Below, in pieces: positions 7,093 to 44,000 of a stretch of DNA of 64,000 bases (position 1 is its first letter; each line of letters starts with the position of its first letter). The position numbers and the translations under genes were made by a program. The notes below the pieces were generated by a model. It saw nothing but the letters and a program-made list of their open reading frames with translations, made no database searches and was not told the DNA's origin. This stretch comes from Lingula anatina (Eukaryota > Animalia > Brachiopoda). The stretch spans positions 22,156,534 to 22,220,533 of the forward strand of contig CM120644.1 of assembly GCA_051362555.1 (NCBI GenBank). The letters run 5' to 3'.

Positions 7093-8657
7093 TTATTTTT
7101 CTATGGCGCATTCCATTAAAAATCTCAATGCGCCTTACAACATTCACTTAAAAGAGCTAAATAACACAATACTAATATAAGAACACATTACAATTTTAAA
7201 GGACTAAGAACTAATTTAAAGAACCAATTATTCATATTCTAAAATGATAAGAACCTAAAGTGACAACATTTAAAATTAATCATAAAATTACAGTACACCT
7301 TATTAAAAACTAAAATGAACTATATGATATTTACTGATAGGCTATTCTAAAAATATGAGTTTTCAAAAGCTTTTTAAAAGTATCTATGTCACCTGCTGCT
7401 CGTATTTCAGAGGGTAAGGTGTTCCAAACTTTGGGTGCATATATCATAAATGCCCTTTCACCGTAAAATTTACCAGCTTTTTTCTCTAAGACACTGTGTT
7501 CTAAAAGTAAATGGCTAAAAGTTGAAGACCTGGTAACTCTTCCATGCTGATGTTGCTTCATAAGTTCTGAGATATAAAGTGGTTTATTCTCAGTGACTGC
7601 TTTAAAAATGACACATAAAATTTTAAATAAAATTCTCTCTCTTACTGGAAGCCAGTGAAGTTCCATCAAAACAGGTGTAATATGCTCTCGGCTGTTCCAT
7701 CCCATTTTAGTTACCAGCCTAGCTGCAGAATTTTGAATTAATTGAAGTTTGTTCAGATGATTTTTGCCTAAACCATATAAGAGACTGTTGCAATAATCAA
7801 GCTTAGAAGTAATGAAAGCATGGACTAGTTTTTCAGTTGAAGTTTTGTCCAGTAAGTCACGTATCTTACTAATTCGCCAAAGTGAGTATGATGCCGATTT
7901 GCAAATTTCAGAGATCCGTCTATCCATAGTTGCATACTGATCAAAGGTGACACCTAAATCTTTCACATAGCTAGATGGATTGATGTTGACACCACCGATA
8001 CAAATATCAGATTTCATTGCATTTCCCCTGTCTGGCTTAGACCTTGATGTAAACCATATTAGTTCAGTTTTTCCATCATTTAGTGCTAGCATGTTTGTTT
8101 TCATCCAATTTCGGATCTCAACTAGACAAGTTTCTATTGAGGTGATAGCCATGGAGCGATTACTTTCACTTGTGACATAAATTTGAGTGTCATCAGCAAA
8201 AATGACAGTGTTGAGACCATGTTTAACTATAATGTCTTCTACTGGTAGCATATACAATGAAAAGAGCAATGGACCTAGCACAGACCCCTGAGGGACACCA
8301 TACTCTAAAATAGTGGGCTCTGATAGCAACGACTCAATTGACACCTTTTGTGTTCGATCTTTTAGATATGAGGTTAACCAATTAAGTGCTAAATCTTTTA
8401 CTCCAAATCGGTACTGTAGTCTGTGCAGAAGTATGTTGTGGTCAATGGTGTCGAATGCAGCAGACAGATCTAAAAGGACTAAAATAACATCTTTTTGTTT
8501 GTCTAAAGAAAGCATGATGTCATTATGAACCCTTAGGAGAGCTGTTACTGTGCTATGTCCTTCTCTATAAGCTGATTGAAACTTGCCATATAGACTATAG
8601 ATCACAAGATACCGAAAATAGATTTTTAGAAAATAGATTTTCCATGTGAACGCAGCC
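6863..8657. mobile_element. Palindromic Tourist/PIF-Harbinger-like MITE (TTA TSD) split by a LINE insertion
   Basis: tta|ggaccgttcacac ... gtgaacgcagcc|tta; the two halves match the intact MITE at 25118-25376. Confidence 0.75.
7054..8599 (-). mobile_element. 5'-truncated non-LTR retrotransposon (L2/Crack-like, CR1 group); RT C-terminal ORF 7331-~8590
   Basis: RT motifs QSAYR..HST.TAL, LLDLSAAFDTIDH, GVPQGSVLGPLLF, FADD, QNSAARLV, LHWLPV; (TTA)n 3' tail on the minus strand at 7053-7091. Confidence 0.92.
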
Positions 8658-9245
8658 TTAATCTGTGACCTGTGATGACTTTAAAGCATTCTCTGTCCTC
8701 CAAGGGATGATGCCTTGTTCAATACTTAATCTGTGACCTGTAATGACTTTAAGGTACTTTGTTGGAGGCAACGTTCGCGTCCGTTAGCAAGTTAGCACAT
8801 TTTTACATTTAAGTCATCTCATTGGCGTGTTGACTTTACTTTACATCTGAATCATACGATGTCGCTTACAAACAATGTGACAAATATTAAATGCGCATAA
8901 GTTCAATTCGGATTTTCTTTCGGATACTTCGTTTTTCTTCAATAAAATATATCTGCACGTCCACGCTACTGGCTAACAGCAGGGGGTGATCATCTTTGAA
9001 AGTCTGTCAAAATATTCCTATGCTTTGGATTACAATCGGGGGGGGGGGGGGGGGGGGGGGTGTTCATGTGAAAGGGGGTGGATTTGCGTTATTATAACAG
9101 ACAATTTTATGTTTCCAAACATTGCTGTGTATTTTAAACTTTTTTAATTCTTAGCCGAAAATAACACTAAAACAGCGCTTAAATGTGGGACATAGACATA
9201 TACCAACCCGTTTTGAGCTGTATATTATGGAAAAGAAAATTATTG

Positions 9246-16952: not shown

Positions 16953-17063
16953 ATGGACATGGTCAACGACAGTGAAGTGACCCCAGGCCAACAGACTGAC
17001 CTTGGAGACACAGGACAAAATATCTCAGTAGTTCACGTAGCTATCCCCAACCAGGCTGTACAG
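16953..17063 (+). CDS. CREB1: CREB1/CREM-family transcription factor, first coding exon (Q1 region)
   Basis: ttgcag acceptor ending 16948, ATG at 16953, MDMVNDSEV...VVHVAIPNQAVQ, donor at 17064. Join 16953-17063, 18176-18324, 18875-19092, 20865-21026, 21300-21438, 22124-22268 = 924 nt, 307 aa. Confidence 0.75.
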
Positions 17064-17808
17064 GTAGGTAACACATGACAAAATATCTCAGTAGTTCATG
17101 AAGCTATCCCTAACCAGGCTGTACAGGTAGGTAACACAGGACAAAATATCTCAGTAGTTCATGTAGCTATCCCTAACCAGGCTGTACAGGTAGGTAACAC
17201 AGGACAAAATATCTCTGTAGTTCATGTAGCTATCCCTAACCAGGCTGTACAGGTAGGTAACACAGGACAAAATATCTCTGTAGTTCATGTAGCTATCCCT
17301 AACCAGGCTGTACAGGTAGGTAACACAGGACAAAATATCTTAGTAGTTCATGTAGCTATCCGTAACCAGGCTGTACAGGTAGGTAACACAGGACAAAATA
17401 TCTCAGTAGTTCATGTAGCTATCCCTAACCAGGCTGTACAGGTAGGTAACACAGGTCAAATATCTCAGTAGTTCATGTAGCTATCCCTAACCAGGCTGTA
17501 CAGGTAGGTAACACAGGACAAAATATCTCAGTAATTCATGTAGCTATCCCCAACCAGGCTGTACAGGTAGGTAACACAGGTCAAAATATCTCAGTAGTTC
17601 ATGTAGCTATCCGTAACCAGGCTGTACAGGTAGGTAACACAGGTCAAAATATCTCAGTAGTTCATGTAGCTATCCCTAACCAGGCTGTACAGGTAGGTAA
17701 CACAGGTCAAAATATCTCAGTAGTTCATGTAGCTATCCCTAACCAGGCTGTACAGGTAGGTAACACAGGACAAAATATCTTAGTAGTTCACGTAGCTATC
17801 CCCAACCA
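17008..17808. repeat. 63-bp minisatellite (~12.7 copies) derived from a CREB exon 3' end plus its 5' splice site
   Basis: Unit acacaggacaaaatatctcagtagttcatgtagctatccctaaccaggctgtacaggtaggta; the first copy overlaps the coding exon. Confidence 0.95.
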
Positions 17809-18175: not shown

Positions 18176-18324
18176 GTGCAGTCAGTGATTCAGCCCACCA
18201 GTCAACCTTCTGTGATTCACACGACGCATCAAGGCAACACAATCCACGTGGTCACGGAAGACGAGTTTGAAGAGGCCGAGGGAAAGAAGAGAAGAGAAAT
18301 ATTAAACAGGCGTCCATCATACAG
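18176..18324 (+). CDS. CREB1: CREB exon: Q1 end and KID N-terminal half with the PKA site
   Basis: VQSVIQP...KKRREILNRRPSYR (RRPSY, Ser133-equivalent); gtatgg donor. Confidence 0.95.
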
Positions 18325-18874: not shown

Positions 18875-19092
18875 AAAAATCCTGAACGAGCTGTCATCAG
18901 ACACGGGCGGCATCAGCGGGATGACGAAGATCACGGAGGAGGACTCCAACAGCAGTCAGGAGGGTATGGAAGCCGCGGACGGGGCTAGCAATCTCAGTAC
19001 GTCACAACAACAGAATGTGGTTGTGTCGGCGACGTCTGTCGCAGCGGCTGGTAATACTGTTCAGTACCAGCAGGCAGGCGGCACTGTCACAG
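18875..19092 (+). CDS. CREB1: CREB exon: KID C-terminal half
   Basis: KILNELSSD continues the KID motif in frame; phases are consistent; donor at 19093. Confidence 0.88.
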
Positions 19093-20864: not shown

Positions 20865-21026
20865 TAGTTCCCACCCATACTATCCAGATAGCCTCCCACG
20901 GTGACGGGATACCACACACGGGTGTCCAGACACTGACCATGTCCAACACTGGCCTGGTCACCTCACCAGGGGGAGCCACTATTGTCCAGTATGCACAGGG
21001 GCCAGATGGACAGTTTTTTATACCAG
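20865..21026 (+). CDS. CREB1: CREB exon: Q2 domain
   Basis: IQIASHGDG...GVQTLTMSN...TIVQYAQGPDGQFFIP, typical of CREB Q2; CAGTAG (NAGNAG) acceptor. Confidence 0.92.
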
Positions 21027-21299: not shown

Positions 21300-21438
21300 C
21301 CACCAATGTCCAGGCCTATCAGATAGCCACGCCCACCTCGCTCCCCCAGGGTGTCGTCATGACAACAGCCATGGGGAGTCCCCAGGGGGTGGGAGAGGAG
21401 GCCTCCAGGAAGAGGGAACTGAGGTTACTGAAAAACAG
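21300..21438 (+). CDS. CREB1: CREB exon: Q2 end and start of the basic region
   Basis: VQAYQIATPTSLPQGVVM...EEASRKRELRLLKNR; gtatgt donor at 21439. Confidence 0.95.
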
Positions 21439-21913: not shown

Positions 21914-22058
21914 AGAGGCAGCCTCTGAATGTCGTCGGAAGAAGAAAGAATACATCAAGTGTTTAGAGAACCGTGTGGCAGTGCTCGAAAATCAGAATAA
22001 AACGCTTATGGAGGAGTTGAAATCTTTGAAAGAACTCTACTGCCAGAAAGATGCATGA
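21914..22058 (+). CDS. CREB1: CREB alternative terminal bZIP exon A (EAASECRR variant)
   Basis: ttcttcag acceptor; EAASECRRKKKEYIKCLENRVAVLENQNKTLMEELKSLKELYCQKDA then TGA; intact and in the correct phase. Confidence 0.85.
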
Positions 22059-22123
22059 ATGAATGAAATTCCAGCAAACCATCGTCTAATAGATGCTAAT
22101 TGTTATCTATTTTGGTTCTTCAG

Positions 22124-22268
22124 AGAAGCTGCTCGTGAGTGTCGGCGGAAGAAGAAAGAGTACATCAAGTGTTTAGAAAATCGTGTTGCGGTGCTTGAAA
22201 ATCAGAATAAGACTCTCATGGAGGAATTGAAATCTTTAAAAGAACTCTATTGTCAAAAGGATGCTTGA
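22124..22268 (+). CDS. CREB1: CREB alternative terminal bZIP exon B (canonical EAARECRR)
   Basis: ttcttcag acceptor; EAARECRRKKKEYIKCLENRVAVLENQNKTLMEELKSLKELYCQKDA then TGA. Confidence 0.93.
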
Positions 22269-22329
22269 GACAGTTCAGTTTGTGCTGGAAGGCAAGTTTC
22301 CAATGGCAAGAAGATAAATCATACTCGGG

Positions 22330-25300
22330 GACAACTCCCAGTTCTGGAGGCAGAGACACTCGGCTGCTAGAACTGATGTCCTGTCCTAGATGTAAACATT
22401 GGGATGTACGTGTATTGTATTACAACAGCAATACAAGGAGAGAGACAGTCTCTGCCCCCGCAGTCTTTTAGCCAATAGAGACAATTCAGTTTTTGCTCCT
22501 GCTGTAGATCTACCATTTGAACACCACCAAAATTGATTTTATTGTAAAGGATGGTAGTTTACCCACTTTATTAAACACATTATCAAAGTATTGTCACATT
22601 TGAGGAAATATTGACCTTATTTTATTTATTTTTTTCTCTTGTAAATTTATTTACAGGAGTGCTAAGTTCATTTATTTAGACTGGTCAACAAGATCACAGA
22701 TTGAAGAAGTGACATTGGCGAGCAGTTTCTCTGTATATTACCCCATCATTATATTATGTTTGTGTATAGCCTGTCAGTACCTCTATTGTAACATAGTGTA
22801 CATGTTTTGATATTGTATATTCATCTTTTGGTTCATATATTAGTAATTCATTAATCTTGCATCATCAGTATATTGTGTATATAAGATAAGTCATATCACC
22901 CATCCATCCCAGATTTTACTAGTGAATTAAAACATATATTTATATTATAACATCAAAACAACTGTACAGCCTTTGAGATGTTTACAGACTTTTTGCCTCT
23001 ATTGTATTGCCAATTTAGATTTCAGTTTAATTGCTTGTGGCTGGCAAAGATGTAAGGATATGAAAACATGAATGATCAATGTATATGAGACTATTTGCCA
23101 CAATTTTCTCAGTGTGTACTGGACAACTTATTGACTTACACAGTGAATGTGAACCAAACAACTAAGATGAAATATATGGGAGTCCTCCATGTATATAAAC
23201 GAAGTCTTCAGTCCATCGTTGACACATATTCACGACATGTTTTCAATCAGACTTATAAAGCAGACAGACTCTTTGAGTTTCTGGAAATTAACCTCCCAAA
23301 CCAGCATACCCACCCAGAAATGGGCTGCTAACCCCTGAAACTTATGACAATTCAAAAAAGCAGCCTGGGTTTACATAAGTCTCTGTCAATAATTAATGTG
23401 TTGATATTAATCTGTTTGTAAACATATGTCTGCAAAAATAATCCCAAAATATGGTGCTTTTGTTGCCATGTTGTAAACTGTCTTTGTATTGCACCTTTTA
23501 TTATTATTATTAAATTAAATCTATAAGATGCTCAGATGTTCTTTTCAGAGACCACATTTAGGTGGTAAGTTAATTTAATAGCATTAATAATTCCAGCAGT
23601 GTTCCAAACGCCGTCTACAATATTGACATGTACATAAGCTTTCTGCTATCATTGTAGAAGTCATTATTTTTGCCTTCCCCCCCCAAATCCCTACTGATAG
23701 AGGGGTTGACAAATTGATTAGAATGATTAAAGTTGGTGTCAGAGTTAGTGACTAAGGTTTTATTATCCGATTGTGGAAATTTATCGTCACAGTTATGGAT
23801 ATTTTATGGATAAATAACCAAAATTAAAAAGTGTATTACTTTGTAAGTAAACCAGTCAGAAAATTTGAGTTTTAACCATTTTAAAGACGTAAGGTATAAT
23901 TCTGTGTCAAATATGGTAAGATTAAGATGTTAAACCATTTATTCTTTGAAAAACTTCACTTGACCTGTTCATCTTAATAACCTTTATTCTATCCCTCTGT
24001 GTAGTAGAAATGCAGATCTATTTTGGAATAAATTTTATAAACAAAGGTAATGTTTTTTGTTAGTCATTTAGAAAAGGATAAACTTTACATTTATTTTAAA
24101 TTTGAAGAAACATTAACAAATCCAACTTTCTTTCAAAGTTCCATAGGCGTTGTGTCCCAAAAATAAATACAACGAAAAGCAAAATCTTCAATTATAAGAA
24201 ATGTGTCTACCATGCCATGTGTCACCCTTGCAAGGATTTAAAAAAATCTAATATAAGTCCATGTATATTAGCATAAGCCATACATAGGCTCTTAACTCAT
24301 TTCTACCCAGGAGCAGTCATAGTCCTAGATTTGGATGTATAGCTAGGTCATTGGGTGTCGACTTTATATACTTTTTGGACGTTCATCCAATGCATTCAGA
24401 TATTTTTTTAATGTAATAAAGTTGTACACATTTTCCAAACTCAGAAACTGATTTCATCTTACTCATAAAAATGAGCAGGTGTCCTTTATTTCAACATTAG
24501 CCAAATAAATAAATTAACAAATATGAATAAAATATATTTTAAACGGTGACTACATTTGCAAACATTTCATTAACATTAGAAACACTTCAGAGGTCCACTT
24601 ACCAAGCTGACTTTCAAGCGAGTTTCACTCCAAGATCCCCGACTTAAATGCCATGGAAAACGTGCTTGAGATGGTGAAGTAAACCATATTCTCTGAATTC
24701 AATTGCATCAGCAGTACTCGTCACCGCTATCGCAATCCGCACGTTGCTGAAATGCATTGTGTCTACCATTAACGATGACAAGTCCAAAACGGACAATGTA
24801 GATAATTCCATTTTCAAATTTCTAGTTTTATTAATGTGAAATGTGCAAACCCATTGTCAAACGCTATCCTACTAGAATTTGCTGTCAAATTCCTTGTACC
24901 ACAACAGAACCAAAGAGTTCAGATCACAAATATAATCCCTAAACTTGTAAATTAATTTTAAGGAGTGTTTTAAGCATTCGTCTCGTTTTATGACTTTATG
25001 GCCTCACATGTTATTATATATCGCAACTTGAACCGTGAAATTTGAGTAATTGAGATTTGTATGCACTGCGCAATAGTGCAACACAGGATCCACCTAAGAT
25101 TAAAAATTGGGATATAAGGCTTCGTTCACATGCAATGTCTATTTTCTAATTTCTAATTTCTATTTGCGCTATCTTATGATCACGGTCTGTGTACTGAATA
25201 TCCCGCCGCGTAATTACTGGCAGCGCTAGCCAGTTCCTTATATAGTAACTTATAGTAACTGGCTCGCGCTGCCAGTAATTACGCCGCGGGATATTCAGGC

Positions 25301-36846: not shown

Positions 36847-37232
36847 AAGATCGATCTAAAAGCTCTGGGAATACAGCCATAGTTGATCTTAAGAGATATG
36901 TTTTCATCCTAAAATGGACAGACCCACGACTAGTCATTTCAGCTCGAAATCCTGAACGTGTGAGGGTTTATGCATATCTCTAATTATGTACATTTCAATC
37001 CCCATAGAACAAATTAAATTCCGAACTGCATTTTGTGTCTGTAATGTTTACTTTATGTGGCATGAACGGGTATAATTTGTATGAAAACAGCACTGTCGAT
37101 CACAAGCTATTGGTCAAGATATATCTGATGTATTGGCGTTGTGAATATGAGGCATACATTGACTAAGATAAAGTCTCTCTTACCTTCTATTACATTTCAG
37201 TAGAGACGAGAGATGAAGTAGTGGCGGTAACC

Positions 37233-38091
37233 ATGGCAACAGCAATAACACAGCCCGACTCTGAACAGGAAGACAATTTTTTTCGCATGACCATTCTAAT
37301 TGTCGATTATGGTTTGAAGGTCTTGCGAGATGTTCTTCGGGAAGAGCTAACAAAAGCGTATTCCAATTTATTTGACCCCCAGTCTGGGTTGTTAAGTGAT
37401 GTGCTTGGTGATGGAACTGTCAGGAAAAAACTGTTTAAACTGTCACCTAGGGTATTTAATGTACATCAACAAAACCAGCTGTATCCTGGTGGAAACCCCT
37501 CCAAAGAAGAGACTGTTGGTAATTTAGACATCACACTGACTGTGCTTTTACTGAGAAATATCACAACATTGACTGCACATCCAGGGTCAAATGCATGGGA
37601 TGACCCCTTAGACATAGACACATCAACAGTAGCCAAGATTGGGCGAGTTAAAAGATACCGAAATGTTGTGTATGCACATGCAAAAAAGTCAGCAATTAGC
37701 GATCAAGAATTCAGTGCACATTTCTCAGGGCTCAAGTCCAACCTCCTGTCTCTCTCTAGTACGTACACAAGTGAGGACTATGATGAAATCTTGACTAGAC
37801 CCCTTGATGCTACTTTACTGAAGGAAAAACGAGACATTCTGATAAAATGGTATGATTATGACAACGATGTGAAAGAGCAGATGAGGTCTCTGGAAAAAAA
37901 CGTTCTTGGGGAGATAAAAAATGGCACACAGCATACACATAATAAACTTGATGAAATCTCGGAAGGAATCACACAGGTGACCCACCAAGTCAGACAGCTA
38001 CAGATGTGCGTGGAAGAGGTCAAAGGTGCACAGAATCGAGATTCACAAAGATGGTCTCTAGATCAGCAAGCTCAGCTGACCAAAGGTACAG
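37233..38091 (+). CDS. Roco protein coding exon 1: DZIP3/hRUL138-type HEPN domain plus coiled coil
   Basis: Acceptor ending 37200, Kozak ACCATGG at 37233; LDITLTVLLLRNIT...WDDP...RVKRYRNVVYAH (Rx5H HEPN motif); phase-1 donor gtatgt at 38092. Join 37233-38091, 39207-39455, 40076-43384, 43660-44000 = 4758 nt, 1585 aa. Confidence 0.8.
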
Positions 38092-39206
38092 GTATGTATT
38101 TTATGCATTTAGATATTTTTTTCTTAAGAGCAGTAAATATTGGGGCCATCATTAATGAAGTACATAATATAAAACTATCATTTCAGGATATGTCGATTGT
38201 GTTCAATTTTGCTCTTAGTTAGAATGAACTGAAATAGTCTTCAGTGACAGATATGTGTACGTGAAGGTCTGATGGCTATTACAAGAAAACTTCCGTTTTC
38301 TTTAATGTTGTATTGAAAGGAAATGTTTAAAACCTAAAAACGTTCACATTATTAACCAATTTAATTTTGCGAGTTACATGTATGAAGGGAACTAGCTGCC
38401 AATGAGAGTTCAGTAAAGTCACGTTTCCCACGCCCTTGAAGCATCTTAAGAGTGTAATAAAACCTAAGTAAAATTATCAAGCAAATGAAATGTAATAGAA
38501 AATGTTCACGGTCTTTTAAAGAGAAAAAATGAAAATTTGCATGGAAAAAACTTCATGTACCACTTATTAAATACGTGTACAGTTTAGTTTCACATAAAAG
38601 AGTTATTTTAAGGGCTATTTTAAGCATTTTTACTACTCTAAACAAGAAATGACAATTATAATATATACTCCATAAGCAGTTATATATATTTCTTTCCACA
38701 AAGCTTTGAAAAAAAACTTCTTCATATGAAAGACTTCCATCACAAACATTCCAACTTTGTTATTAATGAAACAATTCTTTCATATACTGTAGTCGCAATT
38801 CTATTTCGTGTTTCTATTTATTGCCATGGTGGATCACGTTTTACTTTCAGATGCAACTAATATTTTGAAATTTTTGTTGAGTGTACTAATATTAGTTGGA
38901 AAGGAGGAAATTGTCAGAAACAATGCTTATGTACAACAATCTCCCATCATACCATCAGAGATAAATTAAATTTCCACACATATTTAGACATTTGTGTATT
39001 TTGTTTACAGAAATTCAAGAAACTGAACATCGTTTTCTTGTGCAGCTTTCGTGGAAGGAACTCCGCGGATTCAGCTGGCAAAATACTCCATTATATTAGT
39101 TCTGAATCGACCTTCTAGCTGCGTGATGTGAGAGTTAAACGACATTTCTCGTGCTTCATATTACGGCCTATATGTCTAGATTTTTTTTCTTTATTCTGAA
39201 TTCCAG

Positions 39207-39455: not shown

Positions 39456-40075
39456 GTAATCATCCAAAAATATCCGTTCGAGGAACTACATGTACCCGTA
39501 ACTGACACTTTATTTGATTGATATTTCTGTTTGAAAACTTGTAATTGTGATTGTGATTATGATTGTAATTATTGTAATTATGTTTTATAAGTTACCTATG
39601 TACTCAGAAAAATTCAGCCTGATCTTTGTCTAAAGTTTTAAAGTTCTGTGGAATTTATTTTACTTTTATAGGTGTCGAGTAGTCAAAAACGGTACAAGCA
39701 CATTGTATGATGTGTTTTATTCTTTTGATGATCAACAATTAGCTAAGTAAGGATAATAGAAACCATTTGAAAAAAAGTATTATTAAGACGATAAATGATA
39801 AATAAAATGATAAATATATAATATATAAATATATAATAGGGACAAGGGGTAATATTTCTCTTTTCGCTTAAACCACACTGAGAAGAATTCACAAAAAAAA
39901 AAAAGGAACTGACTTTCATGTAGTTTTATGGCAGGTTTGTCAAATATTAATTAGAAAGCTGTTGGGATGAATTAATTTAGATTTTTGAAAGAGTCAGGAT
40001 AGGACTGCCATCCCGCTTTCCTATATCCGATAACCAAATTATATAATATAAGAACTTCAAATATATCCCTTTCAG

Positions 40076-43000
40076 TTATGCAAAGCGCACATGACTATCC
40101 GTGCATAAAAGAGGACACAATGGCTGAAGAAGTTATAGGAGGCGTGGAGGTGTTAGACCTTCTAAAAGATTTGGAGAAAAGACCAGCAGACGACCAGACA
40201 CCAATACCAGACATGATCACCCAGTGTACTGTGCTGGAGCTAACATGTAAGAACATTGAACACATCCCTGACACCATATGTAGATGTATCAATGTGAAGA
40301 AGATCAATCTTGCAGGGAACAAACTTTCGTCACTTCCTCGGTCGTTGCACAAGTTAAAAAATCTCACAAATCTTAACCTTAGTTGGAATATGTTATCAGA
40401 GCTCCCAGCCTCGGTGTCTGCCTTACAACATATAGAGGGCCTAAACCTACAGGCTAACAAGCTATCCAGCCTCCCTTCTGATGTCAGTAACATGACCACA
40501 CTGAAGAGTTTAAACCTCGGGTGGAATCAATTCACAGAGCTCCCAGCCTCAGTGTGTGAGCTACCACATATAGAGAACCTGGACTTAAGCCATAACGAGC
40601 TATCCAGTCTCCAACCTGATATTGGTAATTTGACCACACTGAAGACTTTAAACCTCGGGTGGAATCAGTTCATGGAGCTGCCGGACTCAGTGTGTGCTCT
40701 ACCACATATAGAGAATCTGGACCTTAGCCATAACAAACTATTCCGTCTCCCTCCTGATGTCAGTAACATGGCCACACTGAAACATTTAAACCTCAGAAGA
40801 AATCAGTTCACAGATTTTCCAGCCTCATTGTGTGCTCTACCTCATGTACAGAACCTGGACCTAGAGGTTAACAAGCTATCAAGTCTCCCTCCTGAGGTCA
40901 GTAACATGACCACATTGAAGAGTTTAAACCTAGGGTGGAATCAATTCACAGAGCTCCCAACCTCAATGTGTTCTCTACCACATATAGAGAACCTGCAACT
41001 ACAGCATAACAACCTATCCAGTCTCCCTCCTGATTTTAGTGAGATGACCACACTGAAGAGTTTAAACCTAGGGTGGAATCAATTTACAGAGCTCCCAGCC
41101 TCAGTGTGTGCTCTACCAAATATAGAGAACCTGCAACTACAGTGGAACAAGCTTTCCAGTCTCCCTCCTAATGTCAGTAAGATGACAATACTGAAGAGTT
41201 TAAACCTCAGAAGGAATCAGTTGACAGAGCTCCCAGCCTCATTGTGTGTTCTACCACATATAGAGAACCTAAATCTACAGCATAACATGCTATCCAGTCT
41301 CCCTCCTGGTGTCAGTAAGATGACCACACTGATGAGTTTGAATCTCGGGTGGAATCAGTTCACAGAGCTCCCAGCCTCAGTGTGTGCTCTACCACATATA
41401 GAAAACCTGGACCTACAGCATAACAGGCTATCCACACTTTCTTGTGATGTCAGAAGAATACTCTCACTGAAGAGTGTGAATATTTCCAGTAATAATATCA
41501 CACATTTACCCCACCAGCTTGCCTCGCTGACACTCCATGCTCTGAACGTGGGCGATAATCCTATTCAGCAACCACCCATGTCAGTATGTGAGGCAGGACA
41601 AGAGGCAATATTCAGACACTTAGTAGAACTAAGAGAATCAAAAGCAGTCAAGTCTTGTAGAGTGCAAGTAAACCTCCTGGGAGAAACAAAAAGTGGGAAA
41701 ACCAGTTTAGCACGCTCCCTCAGACGTGGGATACCGATACTCACTGATGAAGCAGATAGAACTAGAGTGGTGGAGCAATCACTGTGGGAAATTGAAAGGG
41801 ACATAAGTTTTAACATCAATGACTTTGGGGGTCATGACGTGTACAGAGTTGGACACCGTATTTTCATCTCACATAACAGTATAGTTCTTGTCACCTTTGA
41901 CCTGTCGACCTATGACCCCCGCAGCACATCACATTTCAAAGAACATATCGGAATCTGGATAGATATGGTGCAGTCCCATAATCCAGGGGTGACAATTGCG
42001 TTGGTTGGTACACATCTCGATAAAACTAATGCAGCAACCAGCAGGGCTGTGTGTGCATCTATTCAACAAGCAATTGCTGATAAAATAAGAAACAGAAAAG
42101 AGTGGTATAATGAGAAAACAAGAAATCAAAAAGTAATAACACAATCCTTACAGAGAGCCGAAGACAGAGGTCTGATTTCAGCATACAGGAATAAGCAAGA
42201 ATCACTGGACGAAATAAGAAGATGTGAGGAATCCAAAATTCATCCTGACATTTTTTTAGTGAGTTCAAAGAATAATGCAGGTTTAGAGAAACTCAAAGGT
42301 TATCTTGCTACCCTAGCGACGAAAAGAAACGTTACCTTACCACAGACCTGGCATGAGGCAGCAAAGAGCATCTGCTCAAGAAAGGAGGATCAAACTAAAA
42401 ACACACTTAGTTGGAATACTGTGAAGCTAGATGTTGAAAGATGTGGACAGCAAAAGCATCACCAAATCACTTATGACAATGTAGATAATATTCTTGCTTT
42501 TCTTGCAAGCAGAGGTGACATCATCTGGTATCCAAACAGTCCAATCCTTAGAAACACCATCTTCCACAGACAGGAAGTTTTAGTTAATCTCTTAAAGGGA
42601 GTGCTCAACCGCAACAATGATGGTTTTCAGTTTTTAACACAAATCATTGTCAGTGAGGCCAAGAAAAAGATAATTAGAGACGAATTCCGCAAGAGGGGAG
42701 TTTTCTCTGTGCAGGTGATTGGCGCCCTTTGGAAACCATTTGGTGTGACAGCCAGGGAAGCCAGTGCAATGGTGGAGCTCATGCAGAGGCTGGAGTTATG
42801 CTTCATGGTGAACAAAGGCAAAGATGGCGCCACATTTCACTTTCCATGGCTACTTAAACAAAGCCGCCCATCAAAAATCAAGTCCAAATGGCCACAATCC
42901 GTACCAAAGGACATTACACAGCTTACCCTGAAAGTGTATTTCCCATACCGCTGTCCTGATGGTCTCTATGAGAAATTGTCTGTGCGCCTTCATTCAACCC

Positions 43001-43384
43001 TTGGACTCTATCAGCCTATGAGGAGAGACTGGAGAGATGGGGTATTTGTGGACATGGCATCACACTGCATGCAAATGACCAGAAGCCAGACGGACAGAGA
43101 CTGGGTGATCACCATTGCTGTCAGAGGTCAACATCTCCCAGACCTGTGGAAAACACTACTCCAAAACCATGATCACCTTATGAACATCATGGAGGAAGAT
43201 TGGCCTGGCTTACCATGTGACAAGTACCTGGTGTGTCCTCATTGTACAAGTCTAGACGCAGAGACTCCAACCGAGTTTCCAGCTGAAATGATTGGCCAGC
43301 CCCCTGACATGAAGGTTACCAGCGTACCATGTTGGGAAACTGGGGAAATGATATCGGCAAACTTAATATATCCTTATATGCCAG
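40076..43384 (+). CDS. Roco protein exon 3: ~20 LRRs, Roc GTPase and COR (MFHAS1-like)
   Basis: 23-aa LRRs; P-loop GETKSGKTS at 41680, G3 DFGG, G4 THLD, G5 VSS; COR-like region with FPWLL and a C-terminal CPHC; donor gtaaaa at 43385. Confidence 0.93.
40360..41470 (+). repeat. 138-bp coding tandem repeat (paired 23-aa LRRs, ~8 units)
   Basis: Recurrent DNA aacctcgggtggaatcagttcacagagctcccagcctcagtgtgtgctctaccacatatagagaacctg at 138-nt period. Confidence 0.9.
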
Positions 43385-43659
43385 GTAAAACTATTTTAAT
43401 ATTAATTAATACATATGATGTCTGTTCTGAAATCATGCTGCTTCTACTACCATCCACATCTCCCAATGAAAATGTAGGAGTTGAATTAATTTTCGGGAAT
43501 CACTGTTTAAAATGATATTTCCATTTCGGATTGGTCAGAAATTCAAGATAGAAAATTGCTATTTGAAATGTGCTTTGTATTTTAAAAGTACATGCAAACA
43601 CAGCCAATCTGCACCCTGACTTGTTACTTTAAAATTTTAACTTTGTTTTGTATTAACAG

Positions 43660-44000
43660 GTTTCGCAGCCATGAAACCCCACCAGAAACGTGCTGTGTTT
43701 CAGAAAAAGGACCTCCTGGTCAGCGAAATAACCATGCCAAATCTGAGTTATCTGCTGGACAAGCTGATAGAGAAAGGAATCATCACTGACAGAGAGAAGG
43801 AGTATGTATGTTCAGTGCCAATTACTGGGGACACAGAGGAGGCTGAAGGGGCAGCAGTAGCAGCTAGTGTGGTGTCTCCTGGACGGACAAGAACACTGCT
43901 CGACATACTGCTCACCAAAGAAGAGAGGGCATTCGAATATCTGTGTGAATTCCTGGTGGAGAATGGGCAGGGCTTTCTAGAAGAACAGCTGAAAAGGTAA
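43660..44000 (+). CDS. Roco protein terminal exon: CARD (death-fold) domain
   Basis: taacag acceptor in phase 1; LVSEIT...LLDKLIEKGIITDREKEYV...RTRTLLDILLTKEERAFEYLCEFLVENGQGFLEEQL fits the CARD helix pattern; TAA ends at 44000; AATAAA at 44088. Confidence 0.82.

Follow-up and report, generated by a model that had tools for sequence, protein, structure and literature searches.

The CREB/CREM gene of the brachiopod Lingula anatina ends in two alternative bZIP exons, here called A and B, that encode identical zippers and differ by one amino acid, a serine or an arginine at the position of CREB residue 298. The pair is a CREM-type alternative DNA-binding-domain design, and it is real, expressed and selected. 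We propose, with moderate confidence, that the splice choice between Ser and Arg at this position would act as a tuner of CREB DNA affinity.

The CREB/CREM gene of Lingula anatina

The exon pair lies within a 64,000-nt stretch of L. anatina DNA (hereafter, the window) and belongs to the CREB/CREM gene of this species. The exon A peptide is a 100% match to Lingula anatina RefSeq isoforms annotated as “cAMP-responsive element modulator”; the protein contains Pfam pKID (E 2.5e-15), the kinase-inducible domain with its RRPSY site; and both isoforms contain Pfam bZIP_1 at E 3e-18, with CREB1 structures as the best PDB matches. The parts of the gene are listed in Table 1.

Table 1. Features of the Lingula anatina CREB/CREM gene, in window coordinates.
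Feature	Position	Strand	Basis
First coding exon (ATG) of CREB/CREM	16953..17063	+	tblastn of RefSeq P0013; donor read from sequence
Kinase-inducible-domain exon (RRPSY)	18177..18324	+	tblastn of RefSeq P0013; Pfam pKID; RNA joint 18324>18875; start read from sequence
Exon with alternative donors 18963 and 18996 (RNA); longer form to ~19092 (RefSeq model P0013)	18875..19092	+	
Q2-region exon, tandem acceptors 20865/20868	20865..21026	+	RNA joints
Shared exon, first half of basic region; donor joined to A or B	21300..21438	+	RNA joints
bZIP exon A, Ser codon 21924-21926; proximal acceptor, major form	21914..22058	+	149/202 joints; RefSeq isoforms
65-nt spacer: 3' UTR of A transcripts and exon B acceptor region	22059..22123	+	read depth at least that of exon A
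bZIP exon B, ancestral Arg codon 22134-22136; distal acceptor; untranslated 3' UTR if A is used	22124..22268	+	53/202 joints; RefSeq X2 XP_013388330
Common 3' UTR, provisional end	22269..23625	+	read depth; no further joints listed up to 23800

Two Lingula RefSeq clusters hold nine members between them. Six end in the Ser exon (isoform X1, XP_013388327, and isoforms X3-X7), one ends in the Arg exon (isoform X2), and two are truncated models on another scaffold. The window differs from RefSeq protein P0013 at two upstream residues and therefore represents another haplotype; the Ser/Arg pair is the same in both. Both ends of the protein are thus already present in the automated RefSeq annotation, from another haplotype. 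In the second CREB model, found on that other scaffold (P0124, P0127), intron read-through ends the protein short of the bZIP; this model could represent either a haplotig or a partial duplicate.

Several other features of the window were recorded. A 63-nt tandem repeat at 17008-17808 (12.7 copies, 96% matches) is in large part an open frame, and each of its units copies the 3' end of the first coding exon of CREB together with its GT donor, which makes about 12 potential donors. Positions 40003-44000 contain a single frame of 1170 aa that carries LRR, Roc and COR domains and, after it, a CARD-matching frame (43641-44000); this putative Roco-type gene possibly has an immune role. The remaining frames are a 351-aa frame with a DZIP3-like HEPN domain (37167-38222), a retroelement reverse-transcriptase frame on the minus strand (7331-8680) and a FAM221-matching frame on the plus strand (2100-2618).

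An old duplicate under purifying selection

Exons A and B are 145 nt apiece, share an identical phase and a TGA stop, and are preceded by the same eight nucleotides (TTCTTCAG). Across their 47 sense codons there are 21 synonymous differences and one non-synonymous difference (23 nucleotides changed), the sole amino-acid change being TCT (Ser) in exon A versus CGT (Arg) in exon B. A sequence-only reading of this DNA had described the pair in exactly these terms and had called it an old duplicate with both copies under purifying selection; the analysis supports this. Between the exons, dN is approximately 0.018-0.024, while dS is 0.58 (YN00), 1.03 (LWL85) or undefined (NG86); changes fall on 21 of 27 synonymous sites versus 2 of 104 non-synonymous sites (Fisher test, p = 6e-17). 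Nucleotide divergence is 16% and nearly all synonymous. The Ser/Arg codon change requires at least two non-synonymous steps, whereas the other 46 codons have accumulated none.

The flanks of the two exons are unlike 3' of the stops (13/40) and weakly alike 5' of the acceptors (20/40), and no third copy of the exon occurs within the window. An AATAAA hexamer lies inside the coding part of exon A (21996-22001) and carries a synonymous change in exon B; read depth is not reduced after it.

Both exons are spliced in RNA

We placed raw RNA reads from eight of nine runs picked by species label (run X3 left out), which derive from three studies. The runs were handled as two sets (X1, X4, X7 and X9; X2, X5, X6 and X8), placed on different stretches with likeness cut-offs of 95 and 92. 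GT..AG joints lead from the donor at 21438 to both acceptors, 21914 and 22124, with A/B counts of 38/15 (X1), 11/8 (X4), 10/4 (X7) and 10/5 (X9) in the first set and 52/14 (X2), 6/4 (X5), 12/0 (X6) and 10/3 (X8) in the second. Both acceptors are used in seven of the eight runs. Summed over the eight runs, 149 joints enter A and 53 enter B (74% A; 95% interval 67-80%), and the Ser exon is therefore the major form. These are the two junctions that the sequence-only reading had named as a check on its proposed splice switch. The two acceptors are really used, as it expected, but a regulated shift between them did not emerge: the A/B ratio is homogeneous over the eight runs, which are of unlabelled tissue (permutation p 0.24).

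Reads are continuous across exon A, the spacer and exon B, with no A-to-B or subsequent joint listed. Exon B is therefore part of the 3' UTR in A transcripts, and the final exon contains the stop of either form. In the four runs with a complete variant table (X2, X5, X6 and X8), no read variant occurs at the Ser codon of exon A, and all six coding variants found in exons A and B are synonymous. Splicing of the activation region varies as well, with the alternative donors and the tandem acceptors of Table 1, the latter 3 nt apart, all seen in reads.

Position 298 in the basic region

The CREB-CRE structure paper is reportedly Schumacher 2000. Presuming that chain A of PDB 1DH3 starts at K285, the Ser/Arg position is R298, as the sequence-only reading had it; by alignment to CREB structures, it lies five residues after the invariant Asn. 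With the same start, the CpG-reading arginine becomes 301, which matches PMC6393304, where Arg301 is the CpG reader and the di-alanine provides the methyl contact. In the alignment to CREB structures, the invariant Asn, Ala-Ala, Cys and Arg301 are intact in both exon products, and because Arg301 and the di-alanine are kept, the CpG reader and the methyl contact are untouched by the Ser/Arg change.

From the numbering and the ungapped alignment ranges, we take the GCN4 residue in register with CREB 298 to be Arg240. This GCN4 residue is given as a phosphate contact in PMC4482085. By analogy, position 298 probably touches the phosphate backbone rather than reading bases; a serine here would lose one backbone contact and leave base reading unchanged. 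Other bZIP proteins also lack a basic residue at this site. Within the Jun family, JunD has Ser at the equivalent of CREB 298, as does the Lingula Ser form. The residue that follows is Lys in JunD but Glu in CREB, and the Ser form of Lingula therefore shows a net charge loss that JunD does not. A PDB chain that is CREB3-like (a label read from its sequence) has Gln at the same position.

Comparison with vertebrate CREM and other CREB isoforms

The Lingula gene resembles CREM in that two tandem bZIP segments follow a shared exon, whose donor can be spliced to either of them through alternative 3' splice sites, and in that the second domain is untranslated behind the stop of the first. In PMC3125264, the mRNA of the first CREM/ICER form carries the second domain behind the stop codon, which is the layout of ICER I and II. 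Mammalian and lizard CREM models have R at position 298 in the first bZIP and K in the second, bearing out an earlier statement to that effect. Both CREM domains are basic at 298, and their zippers differ from each other at many positions, whereas the Lingula pair differs by Ser/Arg only. The original CREM paper is said to be Foulkes 1991.

The sequence-only reading had left open whether this was a convergent or an ancestral CREM-like design. The CREM-like layout stands, but ancestral homology with CREM domains I and II does not: in a 47-column exon tree with 5 of 33 branches resolved, Lingula A and B are sisters (98/90) and CREM domain II is far off, so that each exon has the other as its closest relative and the two are not orthologous to DBD I and DBD II. 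Residues specific to the lineage occur in both exons, whose synonymous sites are unsaturated, with 21 differing codons versus approximately 28 expected under uniform usage and no box switches in 10 six-fold codons. Together, these indicate that the pair arose, or was last homogenized, within the lineage. The resemblance to CREM is better explained by convergence than by common descent; gene conversion could, however, hide an older duplication.

As in Lingula, a single CREB1 gene is diversified by alternative splicing in Aplysia, Lymnaea, Drosophila (dCREB2) and honeybee (AmCREB), but the isoforms described in the available parts of these sources drop or add activation-domain exons and include no alternative DNA-binding exon (PMC11333461, PMC1769443). 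The bZIP of honeybee AmCREB is encoded by one exon pair, E9 and E10. Our literature search, with most subscription papers outside its range, found no account of an invertebrate CREB with two bZIP exons, no contact or mutant data for CREB R298, and no paper discussing the Lingula anatina RefSeq CREM isoforms. To our knowledge, alternative DNA-binding domains in the CREB family have been described for vertebrate CREM only.

CREB last exons in other animals

We counted residues in 106 distinct exon peptides drawn from a set of 496 proteins, 14 of which gave no pattern match; because the counting pattern fixes neighboring positions, only columns 298 and 302 were read. Position 298 is R in 66, K in 32, S in 5, and G, M and Q in one each; position 302 is R in 99, K in one, and non-basic or His in 6. 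Of the two basic-region columns left unconstrained by the pattern, 298 thus varies more. The Gly belongs to a single record, the arthropod-like CREB P0260.

We also compared isoforms of the same length from one gene that differ only after a shared junction. Those of the brittle star Amphiura filiformis have M versus K at 298 as their only difference, and those of Haliotis (abalone) have Q versus R at 298 plus three other changes. At or near the second column, Littorina saxatilis (periwinkle) has G299 and I302 versus canonical residues, and Gigantopelta aegis (vent snail) has L302 versus R plus five other changes. Finally, models from Petrolisthes (porcelain crab) join two bZIP segments, the first of which has A302. 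These protein models suggest duplicated last exons in all five animals.

All bZIP-bearing cephalopod CREBs listed have Ser at 298, including five of seven Octopus cluster members (the other two lack the domain), Argonauta, Sepia and close relatives (records P0096, P0357 and P0463-P0467). Patella has I302 in 4/4 and Mytilus L302 in 4/5 (one truncated); unionid mussels have two neighboring CREB genes, one with H302. A single canonical form is listed for scallops (13/13), Liolophura (3/3), Lineus, Asterias and tubeworms, and likewise for Aplysia, save one isoform with an unrelated tail. Of 338 loci in a metagenome scan, 80 were kept; 58 of them are genomic-like, and 46 of those 58 extend at least 300 nt to either side. 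None of the 80, whose many near-identical peptides probably represent few taxa, has two complete same-strand bZIP exons. In one locus (L062:1113-1342), the bZIP exon is followed downstream by five repeats of its final 13 codons.

The choice of clusters was biased: an odd residue or group was the reason for picking seven of the ten isoform clusters; Littorina, Gigantopelta and Amphiura were included because their representative had an odd residue; and only Haliotis and Petrolisthes surfaced regardless of residue. Any exon pair whose peptides are identical would appear as a single record and hence be invisible. The recurrence of charge loss is inflated for both reasons, and its spread across phyla is a strong lead, not a measured rate. 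We consider it possible, though we stop short of calling it probable, that duplication of the CREB last exon recurred across at least four invertebrate phyla (brachiopods, molluscs, echinoderms and arthropods), each time with one copy losing a basic residue at 298 or 302, which lie on the same helix face. Such a convergent, splice-set affinity dial would have its low-charge Ser state fixed in cephalopods.

How the exon pair may act

We propose that a single donor at 21438, joined to either of the duplicated last exons, yields full-length CREBs identical save for Ser or Arg at 298. The Ser form, missing one predicted DNA-backbone contact, would likely have a somewhat lower affinity for the same CRE sites. 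Identical zippers should let Ser and Arg subunits mix freely; if protein tracks RNA and pairing is random, dimers would be approximately 54% S/S, 39% S/R and 7% R/R. The exon ratio would then set the mean affinity or residence time of CREB, chiefly at weak and half sites, with the motif unchanged. The device would tune the affinity of a KID-bearing activator and would not make a repressor. In support of this reading, the Ser/Arg pair is constant across two haplotypes and three RNA studies, both non-synonymous steps sit in a single codon while the other 46 have none, same-gene isoform pairs in other animals likewise lose a basic residue at 298 or 302, and non-basic residues are scarce among the 106 exon peptides (8/106 at 298, 6/106 at 302). 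The effect may nevertheless be small, because position 298 is variable and JunD binds DNA with Ser there.

A serious, though less likely, rival is tolerated redundancy: after tandem duplication both acceptors would have stayed usable, Ser/Arg at a tolerant site would have little effect, and each exon would be under purifying selection only since a defective translated bZIP would poison dimers. The flat A/B ratio among runs, the variability of position 298 across CREBs and other bZIPs, and the Ser-only cephalopod CREBs listed all fit this account. So do the single forms listed in scallops, Aplysia, Liolophura, Lineus and Asterias, the metagenome loci, and a rough expectation that, at a dS of 0.6-1, an acceptor AG could persist by chance about half the time. 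Such redundancy sits poorly, however, with two non-synonymous steps in one codon and none elsewhere, with a Ser/Arg pair unchanged over two haplotypes and three RNA studies, and with an Amphiura pair that differs at exactly position 298; Haliotis, looked up blind, has Gln there.

The sequence-only reading had offered two further roles for exon A. That its point is a new phosphorylatable serine turning DNA binding off is improbable. The residue does lie in the basic helix, which is flexible when off DNA, and Ser is found in cephalopods too, but the PKA consensus calls for Arg at -2/-3, which the REAAS context does not provide, and Gln, Met and Gly replace Ser in other animals, making charge loss the common feature. 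It is likewise improbable that the Ser form serves as a dominant-negative or strongly attenuated partner in the manner of the engineered KCREB. The KCREB change is at R301, the base-reading arginine, with the zipper intact; Lingula keeps R301 in both exons. An identical zipper with one basic residue lost from the DNA-binding helix is compatible with such a partner, as is the statement in a review that basic-region mutations can abolish binding yet spare dimerization (PMC11333461). Against it, Ser accounts for 74% of joints; the Asn, Ala-Ala, Cys and Arg301 are intact; the bZIP-bearing CREBs of Octopus, Argonauta and Sepia all have Ser, with no Arg form listed; and JunD and the CREB3-like chain have Ser and Gln at the same position. 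Finally, an assembly artifact or dead duplicate, conceivable in a polymorphic animal with a second, truncated RefSeq model on another scaffold, is ruled out by the GT..AG RNA joints to both exons, by reads running unbroken over A, spacer and B, by a second haplotype with both isoforms, and by a 16% divergence that is almost all synonymous.

In vertebrate CREM, the two domains differ at many residues, which has blurred the purpose of the alternative. Lingula and Amphiura are natural single-residue pairs, and with them the binding question has one variable. If the recurrence holds true at the DNA level, the same tuning device evolved repeatedly on CREB, and if the convergent dial is true, affinity control acts on a central cAMP and memory transcription factor. 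The CREB of octopus and cuttlefish, used in learning studies, would then be flagged as having a non-canonical basic region.
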